A DNA stretch of 8,386 nt from the IMG/VR virus record IMGVR_UViG_2585427737_000008; one strand, written 5' to 3'. Origin of the DNA: a virus (lineage: Duplodnaviria > Heunggongvirae > Uroviricota > Caudoviricetes). The position numbers and the translations under genes were made by a program. The notes below the pieces were generated by a model that worked only from the letters and a program-made list of their open reading frames with translations, searched no databases and had not been told where the DNA came from. Below, piece after piece: positions 2-8,386 of the stretch. Within the stretch, counting starts at the first letter, position 1; the number at the start of each line of letters is the position of its first letter.

Positions 2-1486
2 ATCCGCCCTTCTTCCGTGGTGACCAAAGACTACACCTTTAAACGCCCCGGCTGGGCCGGACGTTTTGATCAGGAAGGCCAGCACCAGGATTACCAGCGC
101 ACACAGTATGAAGTGTATGACTACCCCGGACGTTTCAAGGGGGCCCACGGGCAGAACTTTGCCCGCTGGCAGATGGACGGCTGGCGAAACAATGCAGAAA
201 CCGCGCGGGGAATGAGTCGCTCGCCGGAGATATGGCCGGGACGACGAATTGTGCTGACGGGGCATCCGCAGGCGAACCTGAACCGGGAATGGCAGGTGGT
301 GGCAAGTGAACTGCACGGCGAACAGCCACAGGCGGTGCCAGGACGGCAGGGAGCGGGGACGGCGCTGGAGAACCATTTTGCGGTGATCCCGGCAGACAGA
401 ACATGGCGACCACAGCCGTTGCTGAAACCGCTGGTGGACGGCCCGCAGAGCGCCGTCGTGACGGGACCGGCAGGCGAGGAAATCTTCTGTGATGAACATG
501 GCCGCGTGCGGGGGAAATTTAACTGGGACCGTTATAACCCGTCAAACCAGGACAGTTCATGCTGGATCCGTGTGGCACAGGCGTGGGCAGGCACCGGATT
601 CGGTAACCTGGCGATACCGCGTGTGGGTCAGGAGGTGATTGTGGACTTCCTCAACGGCGATCCGGACCAGCCGATCATTATGGGGCGCACCTACCACCAG
701 GAAAACCGCACACCCGGCAGCCTGCCGGGAACAAAGACGCAGATGACCATTCGTTCGAAAACCTATAAGGGCAGCGGGTTTAATGAACTGAAGTTTGACG
801 ATGCGACAGGGAAAGAACAGGTCTACATCCACGCGCAGAAGAACATGAACACCGAGGTGCTGAATAACCGCACCACTGATGTGATAAACAACCATGCCGA
901 AAAAATAGGTAACAACCAGGCGATCACCGTTACCAATAACCAGATCCAGAACATTGGCGTTAATCAGATACAGACGGTTGGTGTCAACCAGGTGGAAACG
1001 GTGGGCAGTAACCAGATTATCAAAGTGGGATCAAACCAGGTTGAAAAGGTGGGGATCATTCGTGCGCTGACGGTGGGTGTAGCTTACCAGACGACGGTAG
1101 GCGGCATTATGAATACCTCGGTGGCGTTGTTGCAGTCCTCACAGGTAGGGCTGCATAAATCACTGATGGTGGGAATGGGCTACAGCGTCAATGTGGGGAA
1201 TAACGTCACCTTCTCGGTGGGCAAGACGATGAAGGAAAACACCGGACAAACAGCAGTTTATTCTGCCGGTGAGCATCTTGAACTCTGCTGTGGTAAGGCA
1301 AGGCTGGTGCTGACGAAGGACGGAAGCATATTTCTCAACGGTACGCACATTCATCTGGAAGGGGAGTCGGATGTGAACGGTGATGCGCCAGTGATTAACT
1401 GGAACTGTGGTGCCACACAACCTGTACCGGATGCGCCTGTGCCGAAAGATTTACCCCCCGGAATGCCGGATATGCGGCAATTTTGA
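2..1486 (+). CDS. vgrG: VgrG T6SS spike protein, C-terminal ~494 codons (5' end lies upstream of window)
   Basis: Frame is open from the window edge (codons at 2-16 precede the GTG at 17), so the gene is truncated by the window. Translation has VgrG-like motifs (YEVYDYPGRFK, GQEVIVDFLNGDPDQPIIMGRTYH) and a run of VGxNQxxx beta-helix octapeptides; TGA stop at 1484-1486. Family assignment is from memory of VgrG sequences, not a search. Confidence 0.88.
   Translation: MRPSSVVTKDYTFKRPGWAGRFDQEGQHQDYQRTQYEVYDYPGRFKGAHGQNFARWQMDGWRNNAETARGMSRSPEIWPGRRIVLTGHPQANLNREWQVVASELHGEQPQAVPGRQGAGTALENHFAVIPADRTWRPQPLLKPLVDGPQSAVVTGPAGEEIFCDEHGRVRGKFNWDRYNPSNQDSSCWIRVAQAWAGTGFGNLAIPRVGQEVIVDFLNGDPDQPIIMGRTYHQENRTPGSLPGTKTQMTIRSKTYKGSGFNELKFDDATGKEQVYIHAQKNMNTEVLNNRTTDVINNHAEKIGNNQAITVTNNQIQNIGVNQIQTVGVNQVETVGSNQIIKVGSNQVEKVGIIRALTVGVAYQTTVGGIMNTSVALLQSSQVGLHKSLMVGMGYSVNVGNNVTFSVGKTMKENTGQTAVYSAGEHLELCCGKARLVLTKDGSIFLNGTHIHLEGESDVNGDAPVINWNCGATQPVPDAPVPKDLPPGMPDMRQF
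905..1056 (+). repeat. Degenerate tandem ~24-nt repeats encoding the VgrG beta-helix octapeptides (VGxNQxxx)
   Basis: Translation reads IGNNQAIT / VTNNQIQN / IGVNQIQT / VGVNQVET / VGSNQIIK / VGSNQVEK; this is an intragenic coding repeat, not a mobile or regulatory repeat. Confidence 0.6.
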
Positions 1487-1561: not shown

Positions 1562-2956
1562 ATGGGCGGCGGAAAACCGGCGGCGCGGCAGGGTGACATG
1601 ACCCGCAAGGGACTGGATATTGTGCAGGGTTCAGCAGGGGTGCTGATAGGTGCGCCAACCGGTGTGGCCTGCTCGGTGTGTCCCACAAAAAAGGACAGTC
1701 CGAACTATGGCAGCCCGGTGAACCCGCTACTCGGTGCGAAGGTTCTGCCTGTTGAAACCGACCTGGCACTGCCCGGCCCGCTGCCGTTTATTCTTTTCCG
1801 CGCCTACAGCAGCTACCGGACCAGGACGCCCGCGCCAGTGGGCGTGTTTGGTCCCGGCTGGAAAGCGCCCTTCGATATCCGCTTACAGATACGCGATGAA
1901 GGCCTGATACTCAACGACAGCGGTGGTAGGAGCATTCACTTTGAGCCGTTGTTTCCCGGCGAGATAAGCTACAGCCGCAGCGAGTCACTCTGGCTGGCGC
2001 GGGGCGGAGTAGCGGCGCAGCACAGTTCGCAGCCGCTAAGCGCGCTCTGGCAGGTGCTGCCGGAAGATGTTCGCCTGAGTCCGCATGTGTACCTGGCGAC
2101 AAACAGCCTTCAGGGGCCGTGGTGGATACTCAGCTGGCCGGAGCGGGTGCCGGGGGCGGACGAGGTGCTGCCGCCGGAGCCGCCCGCATACCGGGTGCTG
2201 ACGGGCGTGGTGGACGGCTTCGGGCGGACGCTGGCCTTTCACCGGGCGGCGGAGGGTGACGTGGCGGGCGCGGTGACGGGGGTGACGGACGGCGCGGGCC
2301 GCCGTTTTCACCTGGTGCTGACCACACAGGCGCAGCGGGCGGAAGCCTTCCGTAAACAGCGCGCCACGTCTTTATCTTCCCCTGCCGGTCCCCGTTCTGC
2401 TTCCTCTTCTCTGGTTTTCCCCGACACGCTGCCCGCCGGTACAGGATACGGTGCCGATAACGGTATCCGGCTGGAGGCGGTGTGGCTGACACACGACCCG
2501 GCATACCCGGATGAACAGCCGACTGCGCCGCTGGCGCGCTACACGTACACGGCCAGCGGAGAACTGCGGGCGGTGTATGACCGCAGCGGGACGCAGGTTC
2601 GCGGGTTTACTTATGATGCGGAGCACGCCGGGCGGATGGTGGCGCACCATTATGCGGGGAGGCCGGAGAGCCGCTACCGGTATGATGATACCGGTCGGGT
2701 GACGGAGCAGGTCAACCCGGAGGGGCTGGACTACCGCTTTGAGTACGGAGAGAGCCGGGTAATCATCACGGACAGCCTGAACCGGCGGGAGGTGCTGTAC
2801 ACGGAAGGCGAGGGTGGCCTGAAGCGGGTGGTGAAGAAGGAGCATGCCGACGGGAGCATCACCCGCAGCGAGTATGATGAGGCGGGGAGGCTGAAGGCGC
2901 AGACGGATGCGGCGGGGCGGCGGACGGAGTACCGGCTGCATATGGCGTCGGGCTGA
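1562..2956 (+). CDS. Rhs family protein, N-terminal segment (PAAR motif plus first YD-repeat region); upstream half of a split rhs gene
   Basis: 464-aa ORF beginning MGGGKPAARQGD...GSAGVLIGAPTGVACSVCP (literal PAAR motif), closely resembling E. coli Rhs N-termini as I recall them. YD-type repeats (RYRYDDTGR, RSEYDEAGR) appear near the end. Terminates at TGA 2954-2956, whereas intact Rhs proteins continue in this region. Confidence 0.8.
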   Translation: MGGGKPAARQGDMTRKGLDIVQGSAGVLIGAPTGVACSVCPTKKDSPNYGSPVNPLLGAKVLPVETDLALPGPLPFILFRAYSSYRTRTPAPVGVFGPGWKAPFDIRLQIRDEGLILNDSGGRSIHFEPLFPGEISYSRSESLWLARGGVAAQHSSQPLSALWQVLPEDVRLSPHVYLATNSLQGPWWILSWPERVPGADEVLPPEPPAYRVLTGVVDGFGRTLAFHRAAEGDVAGAVTGVTDGAGRRFHLVLTTQAQRAEAFRKQRATSLSSPAGPRSASSSLVFPDTLPAGTGYGADNGIRLEAVWLTHDPAYPDEQPTAPLARYTYTASGELRAVYDRSGTQVRGFTYDAEHAGRMVAHHYAGRPESRYRYDDTGRVTEQVNPEGLDYRFEYGESRVIITDSLNRREVLYTEGEGGLKRVVKKEHADGSITRSEYDEAGRLKAQTDAAGRRTEYRLHMASG

Positions 2957-2960
2957 CTAG

Positions 2961-5789
2961 GTGACGGGGCCGGACGGCAGGACGGTGCGGTATGGCTATA
3001 ACAGCCAGCGGCAGGTGACGTCAGTGACGTACCCGGACGGGCTTCGCAGCAGCCGGGAGTATGATGAGAGGGGAAGGCTGACGGCGGAGACCTCGCGCAG
3101 CGGTGAGACAACGCGGTACAGCTATGATGACCCGGCGAGTGAGCTGCCGACAGGGATACAGGACGCGACGGGCAGTACAAAACAGATGGCATGGAGCCGT
3201 TACGGTCAACTGCTGGCCTTCACGGACTGCTCGGGGTACACGACGCGGTATGAGTACGACCGGTACGGTCAACAAATCGCCGTTCACCGGGAAGAAGGCA
3301 TCAGCACTTACAGCAGTTATAATCCGCGTGGCCAACTGGTCAGTCAGAGGGATGCGCAGGGGCGTGAGACCCGTTATGAGTACAGCGCCGCAGGCGACCT
3401 GACAGCGACGATATCACCGGACGGTAAACGCAGCACCATCGAATATGATAAACGCGGGCGTCCGGTGAGTGTGACGGAAGGCGGACTGACGCGCAGCATG
3501 GGGTATGACGCCGCCGGGCGCATCACCACGCTGACTAATGAGAACGGCAGCCAGTCCACGTTCCTGTATGACCCGGTGGACAGGCTGACGGAGCAGCGCG
3601 GCTTTGATGGCAGGACGCAACGTTACCAGTATGACCTGACCGGAAAACTCACGCAGAGTGAAGACGAGGGACTTATCACCCTCTGGCACTACGATGCGTC
3701 GGACCGCATCACGCACCGGACGGTGAACGGCGACCCGGCGGAGCAGTGGCAGTATGATGAGCACGGGTGGTTAACCACCATCAGCCATACCAGTGAAGGC
3801 CACCGCGTGGCGGTCCACTACGGCTATGACGATAAAGGCCGCCTGACGGGCGAACGGCAGACGGTGGAGAACCCGGAGACGGGGGAGATACTGTGGGAGC
3901 ATGAGACGGGGCATGCATACAGCGAACAGGGGCTGGCGACCCGTCAGGAGCCGGACGGCCTGCCGCCGGTGGAGTGGCTGACGTATGGCAGCGGTTATCT
4001 TGCGGGGATGAAGCTGGGCGGAACGCCACTGGTCGAGTACACGCGGGACCGGCTGCACCGGGAGACGGTGCGCAGCTTCGGCGGGGAGGCCTGTGAACTT
4101 GCCACCGCCTGGAATACCAGCGGCCAGCTACAGAGCAGGCACCTGAACCTTCCGCAGCTTGACTGTGACTATACGTGGAACGATAACGGACAACTAATCC
4201 GCATCAGCGGCCCGCAGGAGAGCCGGGAGTACCGTTACAGCGACACGGGAAGGCTGACGGGCGTCCACACCACGGCGGCGAACCTGGATATCGATATCCC
4301 GTATGCGACGGACCCGGCAGGAAACCGGCTGCCGGACCCGGAACTGCACCCGGACAGCACCCTCACGGCATGGCCGGATAACCGCATCGCGGAAGATGCG
4401 CACTATGTCTACCGCCACGATGAATACGGCAGGCTGGCGGAGAAGACGGACCGCATCCCGGAAGGGGTGATACGGATGCACGACGAGCGGACCCACCACT
4501 ACCACTACGACAGCCAGCACCGCCTGGTGTTCTACACGCGGATACAGCATGGCGAGCCACTGGTCGAGAGCCGCTACCTCTACGACCCGCTGGGACGGCG
4601 AATGGCGAAACGGGTATGGCGGCGGGAGCGTGACCTGACGGGGTGGATGTCGCTGTCGCGTAAACCGGAGGTGACATGGTACGGGTGGGACGGTGACAGG
4701 CTGACGACGATACAGACCGGCACCACGCGTATCCAGACGGTGTACCAGCCGGGGAGCTTCACGCCGCTCCTGAGAATCGAAACAGAGAATGGCGAACAGG
4801 CGAAGGCGCGGCACCGTAGCCTGGCGGAGGTGTTGCAGGAGGACACGGGTGTGACGCTACCGGCGGAGCTGGCGGTGATGCTGGGGAGGCTGGAGCGGGA
4901 ACTGCGCGCGGGAGCGGTGAGTGCGGAGAGTGAGGCATGGCTTGCGCAGTGCGGGCTGACGGCGGAACAGATGGCCGCGCAGATGGAGGCGGAATACATC
5001 CCGGAGAGGAAACTTCATCTTTACCACTGTGACCACCGTGGACTGCCGCAGGCGCTCATCACCCCGGAAGGCGAAACGGCGTGGTGCGGGGAGTATGACG
5101 AGTGGGGGAACCAGCTTAAGGAGGAGACCCCGCATCCCCTGTCCCAGCCGTACCGTTTGCCGGGGCAGCAGTATGATGAGGAGTCGGGACTGTATTACAA
5201 CCGTCACCGGTACTACGATCCGTTGCAGGGGCGGTATATCACCCAGGATCCGATAGGGTTGAAGGGGGGAATAAATCTATACACGTATCCACTGGCACCA
5301 ATACGTTACACTGATCCACTGGGGTTAGAACGAGTTATAAGTGTATATGGGCCTCCCGCTCCAGACCGGGCAGGTGCTGAAACTCCTCTTGTTCTTACTG
5401 ATATGACTGGAGGAGTGACTATTTATTATGATCCTGAAACAGGTGATTCAATGACTTTTGATAGTAGCAATAGAATTGATCGTCGTTCTCAACGTGGTGC
5501 TGGTGATCCATATACAGGTGAAGTCGTTGGTTGTGAGACAAATGAATCAGGAATATCGGCAGCATATGGCACAACGAAGATCTATACTACAGATACTAGA
5601 GCAAGATGGCTACATGGTGGGGGATCATCGTTGCGCGATCCTTATGCTCCTCGACAAGGCTGGAAACCAACTATGGGATGTACCCGTGCACAGAATGAAG
5701 ATGTAGATGAGTTGTGTAAGAAAGTGACAAGTTGGATGTATTCGCATCCTGGAGAGAGAATTAGATATGAACGTTTTAAGACACGTTAA
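2961..5789 (+). CDS. Rhs family protein, YD-repeat shell/core plus polymorphic C-terminal toxin domain; downstream half of the split rhs gene
   Basis: 942-aa ORF in the +1 frame relative to 1562..2956, opening with GTG at 2961 immediately after an in-frame TAG. Numerous YD repeats (RYEYD, RYSYDD, RYQYD), the conserved core end [26 protein letters not shown]...YTDPLGL, then a 153-aa AT-rich C-terminal domain; TAA stop 5787-5789. Whether it is translated independently is unknown. Confidence 0.8.
5328..5786 (+). other. Rhs C-terminal polymorphic toxin domain (Rhs-CT), candidate L,D-transpeptidase-like fold
   Basis: Begins right after DPLGL (5313-5327) and is AT-rich against the GC-rich core. 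Contains WLHGGG, then 22 residues later [19 protein letters not shown], resembling the YkuD pattern H-x(n)-[ST]-x-G-C-x-R-x-x-N-x-D-[IV]-x-x-L. Assignment is by motif recollection only. Confidence 0.4.
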
Positions 5790-6159
5790 TGCGATTAACA
5801 TGGGAGTGTGCATTCTAATTTTGGTTATTGGATGTGCAAATGCTAAAGTTCTTAAACGATGTATATTACCCGCTCCTGATGGTGGCGTAGAAAAACTATC
5901 AAAACCCAACTTACATGGAGTAATTAAAAAAGTTGATTTGAACACAAATGAAGCGGAAATTAAAATAAAAGAGGGGGGGGCAGTGAGTTTTATTTTTAAT
6001 GAGGAAACATTGTATTTTACTGTTTTTGGTGGGGATTTTATTATGGATGATTTAAAAAAAGTAAAAAATACGGAAGCATGGGTATGGTATAAAAATTGCG
6101 ATAGTAAAAATAAAAATGTGGCAGTTGAACTTCTTCAAATCTACGAATTGCATCAATGA
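5767..6159 (+). CDS. Small lipoprotein, putative cognate Rhs immunity protein (RhsI)
   Basis: 130-aa ORF overlapping the rhs 3' end by 23 nt. N-terminus [23 protein letters not shown] has a charged n-region, hydrophobic core and lipobox (VIG|C). AT-rich like the toxin domain; TGA stop 6157-6159. An alternative ATG at 5800 would leave too short a signal peptide. Confidence 0.65.
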
Positions 6160-6199
6160 AAAATATAGTTAAATAGAGGAGGTTATTAATAGCAGGAAA

Positions 6200-6223
6200 A
6201 GCATCACGTGATGCTGATTTTTT
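6200..6223 (+). terminator. Putative Rho-independent terminator downstream of the rhs-immunity pair
   Basis: Perfect 16-bp palindrome AGCATCACGTGATGCT (6200-6215), which can form a ~6-bp stem with a 4-nt loop, followed by GATTTTTTG; an A-run sits upstream. Confidence 0.45.
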
Positions 6224-6325
6224 GCACTAAATAATTCGCATTTTATGTTTAAAAATTGAGATATTCCTTATTACCTAAAGCTGTTTTTTATTGCTTATAC
6301 ATGATCAAATACTCCTTACATAATT

Positions 6326-6331
6326 AAGGAG
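6326..6331 (+). promoter_or_regulatory. Shine-Dalgarno (AAGGAG) for the transposase gene
   Basis: AAGGAG lies 6 nt upstream of the ATG at 6338. Confidence 0.6.
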
Positions 6332-6337
6332 AACAAA

Positions 6338-7474
6338 ATGGAACTTAAAAAATTGATGGAACATATTTCTATTATCCCCGATTACAGACAAGCCTGGAAA
6401 GGGGAGCATAAATTATCGGATATTCTACTGTTAACTATTTGTGCCGTTATTTCTGGTGCAGAGGGTTGGGAAGATATAGAGGATTTTGGGGAAACACATC
6501 TCGATTTTTTGAAGCAATATGGTGATTTTGAAAATGGTATTCCTGTTCACGATACCATTGCCAGAGTTGTATCCTGTATCAGTCCTGCAAAATTTCACCA
6601 GTGCTTTATTAACTGGATGCGTGACTGCCATTCTTCAGATGATAAAGACGTCATTGCAATTGATGGAAAAACGCTCCAGCACTCTTATGACAAGAGTCGC
6701 CGCAGGGGAGCGATTCATGTCATTAGTGCGTTCTCAACAATGCACAGTCTGGTCATCGGACAGATCAAGACGGATGAGAAATCTAATGAGATTACAGCTA
6801 TCCCAAAACTTCTTAACATATTGGATATTAAAGGAAAAATCATCACAACTGATGCGATGGGATGCCAGAAAGATATTGCAGAGAAGATACAAAAACAGGG
6901 CGGTGATTATTTATTCGCGGTAAAAGGAAACCAGGGGCGGCTTAATAAAGCCTTTGAGGAAAAATTTCCGCTGAAAGAATTAAATAATCCAGAGCATGAC
7001 AGTTACGCAATCAGTGAAAAGAGTCACGGCAGAGAAGAAATCCGTCTTCATATTGTTTGCGATGCCCCTGATGAACTTATTGATTTCACGTTTGAATGGA
7101 AAGGGCTGAAGAAATTATGCGTGGCAGTCTCCTTTCGGTCCATAATAGCAGAACAAAAGAAAGAACCCGAAATGACGGTCAGATATTATATCAGCTCTGC
7201 TGATTTAACTGCAGAGAAGTTCGCCACAGCGATCCGAAATCACTGGCACGTGGAGAATAAGCTGCACTGGCGCCTGGACGTGGTAATGAATGAAGACGAC
7301 TGCAGAATAAGAAGAGGAAATGCAGCGGAATTATTTTCAGGGATACGGCACATTGCTATTAATATTTTGACGAATGATAAGGTATTCAAGGCAGGGTTAA
7401 GACGTAAGATGCGAAAAGCAGCCATGGACAGGAACTATCTGGCGTCAGTCCTTGCGGGGAGCGGGCTTTCGTAA
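6338..7474 (+). CDS. ISAs1-family transposase (H-repeat-associated protein, YhhI/YdcC/YbfD-like)
   Basis: 378-aa [67 protein letters not shown]..., which matches my recollection of the E. coli H-repeat-associated proteins nearly residue for residue. Strong SD, TAA stop 7472-7474, uninterrupted. Confidence 0.9.
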
Positions 7475-7487
7475 TCTTGCCCTGGGT

Positions 7488-7493
7488 AGGAGG
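7488..7493 (+). promoter_or_regulatory. Shine-Dalgarno (AGGAGG) for the ORF starting at 7504, sitting in the loop of an inverted repeat
   Basis: AGGAGG lies 10 nt upstream of the ATG at 7504, between inverted arms CCCTGG (7480-7485) and CCAGGG (7498-7503). Confidence 0.4.
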
Positions 7494-7503
7494 CCCTCCA
7501 GGG

Positions 7504-7956
7504 ATGTTAGTCGGTGCGGCAGTTGGAGCGGTGGTTATTGGTGGTGGTATAGTAATATACAACAATCGCGAGGCTGTTGGGGATGCGATTGAGAAAAGTA
7601 TGGAGATGCGGGGTGAAGCCGAATTATTAAATGCACAAAGTCAAATGGAATTCTGGCGAGATCCCTATGGTGCTTTTTCCAGCGTGTTTGGAAATGATGA
7701 TTCATCAAAAGAGAATCCAAATGTCGGGAAGGATTTGACGGATGAAGAGAAGAACTGTTTGGGCAGTGGCAGTACAGGAGGTTCGGGAGGGTGGGAGCCA
7801 GATGAGGATGGCGAAATAAGAAATACCTACAGGTCTATTAAGGATGCTCCTCAGTATCCCAGAGGGTTTAGGAATGTCCAAAATGGCACTACAAGGAATG
7901 TTGTAAAGGATCAGCAGTTATTGAAACAATTACGTAAAGTAGATTCAGGAAAATAG
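7504..7956 (+). CDS. Hypothetical membrane-anchored protein; candidate orphan toxin fragment ending at an in-frame TAG
   Basis: The ORF track opens this frame at TTG 7477; I prefer ATG 7504, which has the SD. N-terminus MLVGAAVGAVVIGGGIVIY is a hydrophobic glycine-zipper-like segment, followed by a Gly/Ser-rich linker (GSGSTGGSGGW). AT-rich; stops at TAG 7954-7956 but the frame stays open 39 more codons to TAA 8074-8076. Confidence 0.5.
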   Translation: MLVGAAVGAVVIGGGIVIYNNREAVGDAIEKSMEMRGEAELLNAQSQMEFWRDPYGAFSSVFGNDDSSKENPNVGKDLTDEEKNCLGSGSTGGSGGWEPDEDGEIRNTYRSIKDAPQYPRGFRNVQNGTTRNVVKDQQLLKQLRKVDSGK

Positions 7957-8075
7957 AGTAAAGTTTATAAAGATGGATTTGATGCGTCAGGTCGAAAAGT
8001 GTCCATTCACTATTTTGAAAGTCAGAGTGGTCGAGTATTTAATGTAAAAGTAAAACCTTATTGGAGTAATTTATA

Positions 8076-8386
8076 ATGAGAATTGATTATAGTATTAGCA
8101 ATGAACACGCAGAGAAATTTATCAGTCTTTTAGTGTTGGGTGTTTTATATTCTATTGAAAAAAAGCAATATCTATAGATGAGGCAGAAGGTTTTATATTT
8201 AAGCCATCTACGTCAAAAACATTGAATGCTGCATCGCACTCTAAAAACTTAATTGACATTATAGATTCTGGTTGTGAGCTTGAAGATATATCTAGCATCA
8301 TTCCTGAAAATTTATCAGGTAATATTGATAAATTAATTAACCAGACGCTGGATTTTATTCGAGGTGCTCCTGATTTTGGCGGTGCA
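8076..8386 (+). pseudogene. Putative immunity gene for the upstream orphan toxin, apparently frameshifted at an A7 tract; 3' end beyond window
   Basis: ATG at 8076 overlaps the upstream TAA (TAATG). It encodes only 33 aa (MRIDYSISNEHAEKFISLLVLGVLYSIEKKQYL) before TAG 8175-8177. The +2 frame is open from 8159 to the window end (…AISIDEAEGFIFKPSTSKTLNAASHSKNLIDIIDSGCELEDISSIIPENLSGNIDKLINQTLDFIRGAPDFGGA) with no ATG or GTG start. Adding one A to the A7 run at 8158-8164 fuses the two. Confidence 0.35.

Follow-up and report, generated by a model that had tools for sequence, protein, structure and literature searches.

A probable relic of a displaced Rhs C-terminal tip beside an ISAs1-family insertion sequence in Escherichia coli

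Introduction

The described systems closest to the locus reported here are the dissociated Rhs tips (Jackson et al. 2009, PMC2935791; Poole et al. 2011, PMC3150448). Like them, the locus is preceded by a full-length rhs gene linked to vgrG, is low in GC compared with the Rhs core, has an immunity gene that overlaps its toxin tip and consists of sequence that is attached after DPxGL in other strains. Unlike them, it has lost the core fragment, the DPLGL motif and 27 further codons at the end of an ISAs1/H-repeat element, and its toxin gene is nonsense-mutated and its immunity gene frameshifted, so that it is probably a relic that could not serve as a spare cassette.

CdiA-CT regions, as Willett et al. 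reportedly set out in 2015, consist of an N-terminal domain for entry into the cytoplasm and a C-terminal toxin, which are recombined in modular fashion. Similarly, the Rhs tips related to our locus show two pre-toxin variants, at least three toxins and a conserved junction at which GC steps down. Here, by contrast, the carrier is a T6SS Rhs protein, and the pre-toxin region is Gly-rich and hydrophobic instead of a folded receptor-binding entry domain, its entry role being putative. Membrane-inserting glycine-zipper segments are found at the N-terminus of Tde1, in CdzC/D and in Tse4/Tse5-CT. Our locus resembles the Agrobacterium T6SS DNase Tde1, which needs its glycine zipper to enter target cells (Ali et al. 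2023, PMC10240207), in having a Gly-rich hydrophobic stretch of the GxxxG type N-terminal to a presumed cytoplasmic toxin. The two share no sequence homology, however, and our locus has one GxxxG and one AxxxG instead of a long repeat, in a segment that is internal to an Rhs tip instead of forming the N-terminus of the effector; its role in permeabilisation is putative. Finally, the toxin domain is reminiscent of the BECR RNases (barnase, EndoU, colicin D/E5, RelE) in its size of ~90 aa, its strongly basic character, a helix packed on an antiparallel sheet, invariant His/Lys/Tyr/Ser/Arg/Glu residues, a cytoplasmic immunity partner and its polymorphic-toxin contexts.

Here we analyse an open reading frame (ORF) in a stretch of 8,386 nucleotides, hereafter the window. 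A preliminary description had regarded the ORF as something other than a typical orphan Rhs C-terminus. It had offered three origins: a toxin of another lineage, a membrane-anchored or bacteriocin-like protein, or what is left of the 3' end of a longer gene that the H-repeat had interrupted.

Results

Position and properties of the ORF

Comparison with E. coli genomes identified the window as an E. coli T6SS vgrG-rhs island (table 1). Over its full length the window shares 97.8% identity with TW10722, whose gene order is tssB/C/E/F, hcp, vgrG, rhs, dsORF, ISAs1, hypothetical, DUF3969 and second rhs, while positions 7400..8386 are 100% identical to IAI1 and many other strains. The ORF occupies the position of an orphan tip, with the window reading vgrG, rhs, dsORF, IS, ORF, and the same order is present in IAI1, TW10722 and MB15. 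A block of IS, ORF, DUF3969 and next rhs occurs in the chromosome both at the rhs locus vgrG..yafV and at a second, vgrG-linked rhs locus that is bordered by pptA, yddH and nhoA. The products of the locus are annotated as 'hypothetical protein' (WP_000960005/6) and a shortened 'DUF3969 family protein'.

Table 1. Features of the window, with coordinates counted from its first nucleotide.
Feature	Coordinates	Strand	Remarks
vgrG, 3' end	17..1486		
Main rhs gene with its own tip	1562..5789		
dsORF of main rhs	5767..6159		
ISAs1-family IS (H-repeat, ISEc1-like)	about 6192..7484	+	Right end ...CCCTG at 7484
ISAs1 transposase ORF, intact, 378 aa	6338..7474		ISAs1 family transposase according to PGAP in matching genomes
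Rhs pre-toxin remnant	7485..7809	+	Begins at the 28th codon after DPLGL
SD-like AGGAGG (7488..7493) and ATG 7504	7488..7506	+	Prompts gene callers to report the ORF
ORF under study	ATG 7504, TAG 7954-7956	+	150-aa product
Hydrophobic Gly-zipper-like segment LVGAAVGAVVIGGGIVIY	7507..7560		Within pre-toxin remnant
Acidic helical stretch			Within pre-toxin remnant 7485..7809
Junction motif PNVGKDLTDEEKNCL	7717..7761		Within pre-toxin remnant
Gly/Ser linker GSGSTGGSGGWEPDEDGE	7762..7815		
Toxin domain, ~88 aa, interrupted by TAG	7810..8073	+	Unnamed polymorphic-toxin family
Nonsense codon TAG for Trp codon TGG	7954..7956	+	G-to-A change
DUF3969 immunity pseudogene	8076..8386	+	Exits the window; end ~30 nt beyond

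Translation of ORF 7504..7956 starts with MLVGAAVGAVVIGGGIVIY..., continues into the linker ...GSGSTGGSGGWEPDEDGE and ends in a basic tail, in agreement with the hydrophobic Gly-rich start, Gly/Ser linker and basic C-terminal region that had been noted before; the longest ORF call begins at TTG 7477. The hydrophobic segment LVGAAVGAVVIGGGIVIY has a 19-residue Kyte-Doolittle mean of ~2.1, and its zipper-like spacing amounts to two repeats only, G4xxxG8 and A9xxxG13. The reconstructed domain 7810..8073 has a pI of 10.3, compared with 4.1 for the part that precedes it. The ORF had also been called AT-rich and devoid of Rhs core and DPxGL. Both points held: GC is 0.49 at 7485..7808 and 0.35 at 7809..8076 against 0.64 in the Rhs core, and a motif and similarity check found neither core nor DPxGL inside the ORF. 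A homology search with the readthrough product, which the preliminary description had proposed, matched Salmonella Rhs fragments. Homologues were recovered at E = 1e-82 to 1e-30, which argues that the ORF is not a product of chance.

The ORF matches the C-terminal tip of Rhs proteins

When 7485..8386 was used to query complete E. coli genomes, the matches fell into two classes. The first covered the whole piece at >=99% identity in ~600 genomes. The second was confined to 7485..7808 at ~93.5% identity and occurred in ~267 genomes (90-95% identity band), within a gene annotated 'RHS element core protein'. At the nucleotide level, 7485..7808 (324 nt) is 93.5% identical, in frame, to positions 6001..6324 of locus L002, which lie within the full-length Rhs protein WP_021516938.1. 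In DA33137 the gene for this protein adjoins vgrG at the same vgrG..yafV locus, and the Rhs C-terminus carries the tip sequence VGGPPGMLVGAAVGTVVIGGGIIIYNNREAVGDAIEK...PNVGKDLTEEEKNCLGGGSTGSPGGWGPEDE followed by a different toxin. The stretch MLVGAAVGTVVIGGGIIIY is the Gly-rich stretch of the DA33137-type Rhs pre-toxin, and in the nucleotide alignment with DA33137 identity starts at GGTAGGAGGCCC, that is, at window position 7485. The tip follows the DPxGL motif in frame in the DA33137 Rhs, in the Salmonella sequences P0005 and P0006 and in P0018, where DPLGL stands ~30 aa before the same VGGPPG motif. The window itself has no core fragment or DPxGL of the kind that orphan tips keep, its tip homology beginning at 7485, right after the IS.

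This homology to the sequence that follows DPLGL, together with its start at the first base after the IS, identifies the ORF as a displaced Rhs tip. By sequence comparison, the ORF is thus an Rhs C-terminal tip minus the core, DPLGL and 27 further codons. Of the three proposed origins, truncation of a longer gene at the H-repeat, with only its 3' part left, was thereby borne out, the same pre-toxin following DPLGL in full-length Rhs and the homology starting at the IS end. A toxin of another lineage, on the other hand, does not agree with close homologues that are Rhs C-termini of Salmonella and E. coli. As for the view that this is not a typical orphan Rhs C-terminus, it stands in so far as core and DPxGL are gone; in other respects the tip is an ordinary dissociated one, made atypical by truncation and decay.

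We also considered that a non-Rhs toxin, such as a CdiA, colicin or phage module, landed beside the H-repeat by horizontal transfer and was never part of an Rhs gene. The domain is indeed found on CdiA, eCIS and Tc-like carriers as well as in stand-alone secreted proteins, and the GC of the toxin (0.35) differs from that of the pre-toxin (0.49). Yet the 324 nt before the toxin domain are the Rhs-tip sequence that follows DPLGL in E. coli, the closest homologues are Salmonella Rhs tips, and the contig L010 has DPLGL directly upstream of the same allele. An origin outside Rhs is, on these comparisons, already contradicted, and we give it next to no credence.

Junction with the insertion sequence

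The element between the main rhs gene and the ORF is of the ISAs1 type, with an ISAs1 transposase and terminal inverted CAGG...CCTG ends, the left one at about 6193 (CAGGAAAAG...) and the right one at 7484 (...CCCTG). Over ~1300 nt it shares 94.8% identity with the copy of the element in L002. The right end at 7484 is set independently by four copies of the IS, each with a right flank of its own, and tip homology therefore starts at the first base past the IS (7484|7485). No target-site duplication was present, the flanks TTATTAATAG (left) and GGTAGGAGGC (right) being unrelated, and the lost 5' piece (core end, DPLGL and 27 codons) was not found anywhere else in the window. A simple IS insertion was rejected, given that both the target duplication and the left half are missing from the window. 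These two absences point to an IS-associated deletion or IS-IS recombination instead of a clean insertion.

Lesions in the toxin and immunity genes

Reading through the TAG to the TAA at 8074-8076, as the preliminary description had proposed, yields genuine homologous coding sequence in frame. The Salmonella Rhs fragment P0005, which has RHS Pfam domains, shows 63% identity over 96% of the readthrough query, and P0006, a Salmonella Rhs C-terminal fragment, carries an intact domain; in the Salmonella homologues, the Rhs core end and DPLGL precede this same domain. The position of the TAG is occupied by Trp in all 239 unique family members (239/239). In DNA, the codon is TGG in six intact homologous loci and TAG in the window and in L010, a short contig from a metagenome run. 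As the TAG allele of L010 is preceded by DPLGL and by a pre-toxin region other than that of the window, the nonsense allele exists in a core-linked setting too.

An AF2 model of the domain from a Salmonella homologue (pLDDT 86.6) predicted a strand at 25-35, a helix at 39-46 and strands at 53-61, 67-75 and 80-87. The stop falls at domain residue 53 and leaves the window without an intact domain; of the four core strands, the ORF product would thus lack three, along with most of the polar residues that the family conserves, among them the invariant K53, Y55, S67 and H69.

The toxin-frame stop TAA (8074-8076) overlaps the ATG of a DUF3969 gene at 8076 (TAATG). In the window, the DUF3969 frame breaks in a run of seven A at 8158..8164. 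Adding one A to this run gave a 113-aa protein with a full-length DUF3969 match (2.7e-19), whose intact counterpart is a 113-aa DUF3969 protein in Salmonella locus L004 (2888..3229). PGAP annotates only the 3' part of the window gene. The cognate immunity gene is therefore there in frameshifted form, and the toxin/immunity setting suspected in the preliminary description was found directly downstream of the ORF, though with this frameshift. With both genes broken, the ORF is very probably a non-functional relic, the 3' part of a dissociated Rhs C-terminal tip.

A 150-aa product may nonetheless be translated, given the good SD and ATG. Such a product could be a small functional protein exapted from the tip, membrane-anchored or bacteriocin-like, that starts at ATG 7504, perhaps by transcription reading out of the IS, and places its Gly-zipper helix in a membrane. 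In favour of it, the ATG is preceded at a distance of 10 nt by a strong SD-like hexamer, the hydrophobicity of the 19-residue segment would suffice for a membrane helix, and glycine-zipper peptides can depolarise membranes (Tde1 N-terminus, PMC10240207; EsxX, PMC12744356). In the intact DA33137 Rhs, however, the region of AGGAGG and ATG 7504 encodes an internal VGGPPGM, so the SD and ATG belong to ancestral coding sequence and did not evolve as a start site. SD, ATG and helix alike are internal coding sequence of intact Rhs and were not selected as a start. Moreover, the ORF stops at a nonsense codon in the middle of a domain, a promoter scan gave no excess over shuffled controls, neither a leader peptide nor an exporter accompanies the ORF, and the sole candidate immunity gene is broken. 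Given a hydrophobic segment internal to a larger pre-toxin, a toxin fold that a nonsense codon interrupts and a frameshifted immunity gene, the membrane-anchored or bacteriocin-like protein of the preliminary description found no backing. The distribution of the ORF among E. coli genomes bears on the exapted protein as well.

A single allele in E. coli

The toxin and DUF3969 segment was present in 605 of 5426 complete E. coli genomes (~11%), always at >=99% identity. A blastn 'distant' search of the same 5426 genomes returned no intact or divergent copy, the single broken allele being the only one. One allele at >=99% identity points to recent shared ancestry. Retention of the ORF in ~600 genomes would suit an exapted protein, but this conservation is that of the single allele and reflects its recent shared ancestry.

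We inspected four of the ~605 alleles base by base (IAI1, MB15, 268.2 and ESBL 15). All four (4/4) retain the TAG and the broken DUF3969 gene. Among them we found a further A deletion (A6), two additional indels within the DUF3969 gene, a deletion that falls between SD and ATG, at 7500, and, in two of the four, an F-to-V change at a Phe that is invariant in the family. On its sequence, the lesion pattern of the sampled alleles is one of neutral decay. The Phe-to-Val change and the deletion between SD and ATG speak against an exapted protein in particular, which we consider very unlikely.

Alternatively, the locus could be a silent cassette from which the pair is recovered by recombination, reversion (TAG to TGG, A7 to A8), readthrough or slippage on the A run. 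Each gene is one point change away from intact, the length of the A run differs between strains, and the pre-toxin and junction are common to main Rhs genes and offer ~320 nt of homology for recombination. There is also precedent in orphan Rhs tips re-expressed in Salmonella, and dissociated tips have been regarded as exchangeable (PMC2935791). Against this, no core homology is left and the usual core-core crossover cannot re-attach the tip, two independent lesions would both need repair, and the 5426 genomes offer no intact copy. The sampled alleles gain further lesions and none of the four is repaired (0/4). Recovery of this cassette strikes us as most improbable, and we retain the relic of a displaced Rhs tip as our reading of the locus.

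Intact relatives of the toxin domain

A profile search of 1.84 billion representatives recovered 399 family members, 252 of them at E <= 1e-10. The conserved C-terminal domain of ~90 aa that many homologues of the readthrough product share reads IKNTYxSIKDAPQYPxGF..QNGT..LR..ESGxWxKVYKDGxDxSGxKVSIHYFxSxSGxVFxVKVKxxWSN. The domain ends at the C-terminus, or no more than ~20 residues from it, in the 150 members listed of the 399. Its carriers include Rhs/YD (RHS_repeat) proteins with or without PT-HINT, Tc-like SpvB/TcdB/FG-GAP proteins, a CdiA-type protein (DUF637 and PT-VENN), an eCIS_core protein, a RicinB/VWA protein, a PAAR-like protein, and short stand-alone proteins, among them signal-peptide or lipoprotein forms in Xenorhabdus. 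A DUF3969 gene lay immediately downstream in seven of seven contexts from four phyla, namely Salmonella (two), Gilliamella, Xenorhabdus, Enterococcus, Corallococcus and Pseudomonas. Its C-terminal place on diverse carriers, together with DUF3969 downstream, is the behaviour of a polymorphic toxin. From these sequences, the intact relatives define an unnamed, putative polymorphic-toxin domain, basic and ~90 aa in size, for which DUF3969 would be the dedicated immunity family.

The family members bear no source names other than 'hypothetical', 'lipoprotein' or that of the carrier. Pfam and NCBIfam returned no toxin match for the ORF, the readthrough product or seven intact homologues, and PADLOC and PHROGs had none for one intact domain. 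A PDB sequence search gave only noise with the toxin profile and with the DUF3969 protein, and Foldseek comparison of the domain with PDB and BFVD produced nothing at E <= 0.001. We found no papers on DUF3969, PF13108 or the WP accessions in a literature search.

Alignment of the family profile with barnase and RelE by hhalign gave probabilities below 1%, and neither sequence nor fold matched a BECR RNase (barnase/EndoU/colicin E5-D/RelE), which leaves the likeness as a lead only. A BECR-type catalytic set would correspond to K53, Y55, S67, H69, R44 and E47, with the conservation pattern as its sole support. The small size, the pI of 10.3 and an invariant His, accompanied by Lys, Tyr, Ser, Arg and Glu, nevertheless suggest RNase-like action, as do a DUF3969 protein without a signal peptide, judged by eye, and carriers aimed at both bacteria and eukaryotes. 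Since BECR membership was tested and did not hold, this idea concerns the mode of action and not the family. We propose only tentatively that the toxin acts in the cytoplasm on nucleic acid, most likely as a metal-independent RNase.

Pre-toxin region and junction

A first variant of the pre-toxin region precedes both the DA33137 toxin and the toxin of the window, and a second variant (P0043, P0007) precedes a DA33137-type toxin and, again, the toxin of the window. A third toxin is carried by P0050, the sequence of which starts inside the junction. The junction common to these tips is PNVGKDLTDEEKNCL-GG.STG.PGGW.PEDE, and GC drops there. One pre-toxin region thus stands ahead of at least two toxins and the junction ahead of at least three; by sequence, pre-toxin region and toxin assort independently. 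Related junctions occur in Salmonella Rhs tips and a PAAR-like protein, and Gly/Ala-rich hydrophobic stretches are also found ahead of this toxin in unrelated carriers. In the window, the pre-toxin region is itself truncated.

In other Rhs classes, prePAAR transmembrane domains are thought to serve translocation across the inner membrane. Judged by eye from the N-terminus of the Rhs in the window, the Rhs effectors of the E. coli type appear to be without them. How Rhs tips cross the inner membrane has been called undefined in a recent preprint (bioRxiv 10.1101/2025.10.28.685041). The AF2 model of a whole Salmonella tip (P0006, 303 aa) had a pLDDT of 43 and was unusable for the pre-toxin region, whose helical, membrane-inserting nature is consequently argued from hydropathy only. 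By analogy with Tde1, a role of the pre-toxin segment in translocation or membrane insertion in the intact proteins is a serious possibility, if somewhat short of a probable one.

Discussion

We consider it quite probable, as the best explanation overall, that the ORF is a relic of a displaced Rhs tip that was cut at the IS and then decayed. On this reading, the ancestral tip comprised the Rhs core end, DPLGL, a pre-toxin region of ~130 aa, a basic toxin of ~90 aa and an overlapping DUF3969 gene. In its pre-toxin region were hydrophobic, putatively helical segments rich in Gly and Ala, together with an acidic stretch and the junction PNVGKDLTDEEK..GG.G.G.PGGW.PEDE. A rearrangement associated with the ISAs1/H-repeat deleted everything before the 28th codon after DPLGL. 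Thereafter, a TGG-to-TAG change cut the toxin domain behind its first strand and helix. A 1-nt change in the A run broke the immunity gene.

In the intact relatives, T6SS delivery would, we infer, be followed by release of the tip from the Rhs cage at DPxGL. The Gly-zipper-like pre-toxin could insert in the inner membrane of the target and help the toxin to reach the cytoplasm, where the basic domain would attack its target, most likely nucleic acid. Invariant His/Lys/Tyr/Ser residues could provide RNase-like chemistry, and a cytoplasmic DUF3969 protein would block the toxin in the producer.

For annotation, the 'hypothetical' WP_000960005/6 and the truncated DUF3969 call would belong together, each as one half of a toxin-immunity cassette that is dead and was truncated at the H-repeat. 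As a feature of the window this is ordinary; the toxin family, its DUF3969 partner and the shared pre-toxin module are modest leads. They comprise a widespread toxin domain that has no family name or structural relative in the libraries searched, DUF3969 as its assignable immunity partner (seven of seven contexts, four phyla), and the DA33137-type Rhs as a testable candidate module, with a hydrophobic Gly-rich pre-toxin common to different toxins. The toxin family and the pre-toxin/junction unit are undescribed in the libraries and literature that we searched.

Taken jointly, the data could describe a family of toxins that differ in fold and activity from any solved toxin and have DUF3969 as their immunity, in which the Gly-zipper pre-toxin and its junction form an inner-membrane translocation unit and a point of cassette exchange. 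This joint reading is possible but on balance unlikely. If true, a toxin family would have retained 50-70% identity across a range that extends from Enterobacterales to Firmicutes and Myxococcota, and a tip-borne unit would serve the Rhs effectors of the E. coli type.

A possible second exchange point in the Rhs tips

The relic ORF, the IS-truncated Rhs C-terminal tip, carries the motif PNVGKDLTDEEKNCL-GG.STG.PGGW.P(E/D)DE, which is common to Rhs tips whose toxins are of three kinds and whose pre-toxin regions are of two. At this motif, the GC content drops from 0.49 to 0.35. The junction may be a second cassette-exchange point, located downstream of DPxGL.

Features of the window and of related loci (window coordinates unless a locus is named)
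Feature	Position	Remarks
Main rhs, split	ORFs 1562..2956 and 2961..5789	break within 2950..2965
Main Rhs tip, after DPLGL	5295..5789	Pfam YkuD match
dsORF, overlapping main Rhs tip	5767..6159	lipobox-like ...LVIGC at start
ISAs1 transposase ORF	6338..7474	378 aa, intact
Junction motif	7717..7815; E. coli DA33137 locus (L002) ~6230..6330	also in Rhs tip homologues P0043, P0050, P0007
Block of ISAs1, relic ORF, DUF3969 pseudogene and second full-length rhs	E. coli loci L001 9105..14345 and L007 6696..11951	
Stand-alone toxin copy, Xenorhabdus japonica	L006 4001..4809	further copies: P0027, P0032, P0061

The main Rhs effector

The tip of the main Rhs is matched by Pfam YkuD, the L,D-transpeptidase catalytic domain (2.8e-5, exceeding the gathering score), and the N-terminus of dsORF resembles a lipobox. 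Together, these sequence features suggest that the tip is a cell-wall toxin acting in the periplasm, with dsORF as its lipoprotein immunity partner.

Compared with TW10722, the closest complete genome, where rhs is one undivided gene of 4233 nt, a 5-nt deletion at approximately 2959 divides the main rhs of the window. This break may mean that the strain's primary Rhs effector is a pseudogene too; alternatively, the split may be a sequencing error. Of the 198 substitutions that separate the window from TW10722, 190 fall in one part of the Rhs core (2000..3500), a cluster that looks like a recombination patch, while 6100..8386 is identical in the two sequences.

Decay and probable relocation of the orphan copies

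The frameshift in the window copy of DUF3969, the probable immunity family of the toxin, maps to a homopolymer (8158..8164) that is A7 or A6 depending on the strain, and one allele has further indels close to this run (a T gained at 8127 and a G lost at 8165). The orphan Rhs fragment P0005 of Salmonella enterica, a copy of this toxin, has its own 1-nt deletion (L004 2850..2890), which leaves the protein nine residues short (..NVK*), and is adjoined by an intact DUF3969 gene. Orphan copies of the toxin seem to decay independently of one another.

The ISAs1 transposase ORF is also intact in TW10722; the annotations of IAI1 and several other strains list it as a pseudogene that internal stops or frameshifts interrupt. 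The block that it heads occupies two different chromosomal rhs loci, one at vgrG..yafV and the other bordered by pptA, yddH and nhoA, which implies that the entire block was relocated when copies of rhs or of the H-repeat recombined.

Stand-alone forms in Xenorhabdus

Several copies of the toxin domain that lack a carrier are encoded in Xenorhabdus, with a signal peptide or a lipoprotein leader. In the one Xenorhabdus context examined, a DUF3969 gene lies downstream of the toxin copy and a Phage_lysis gene is found nearby. The Xenorhabdus copies would be a secreted, carrier-free version of the toxin of the window.
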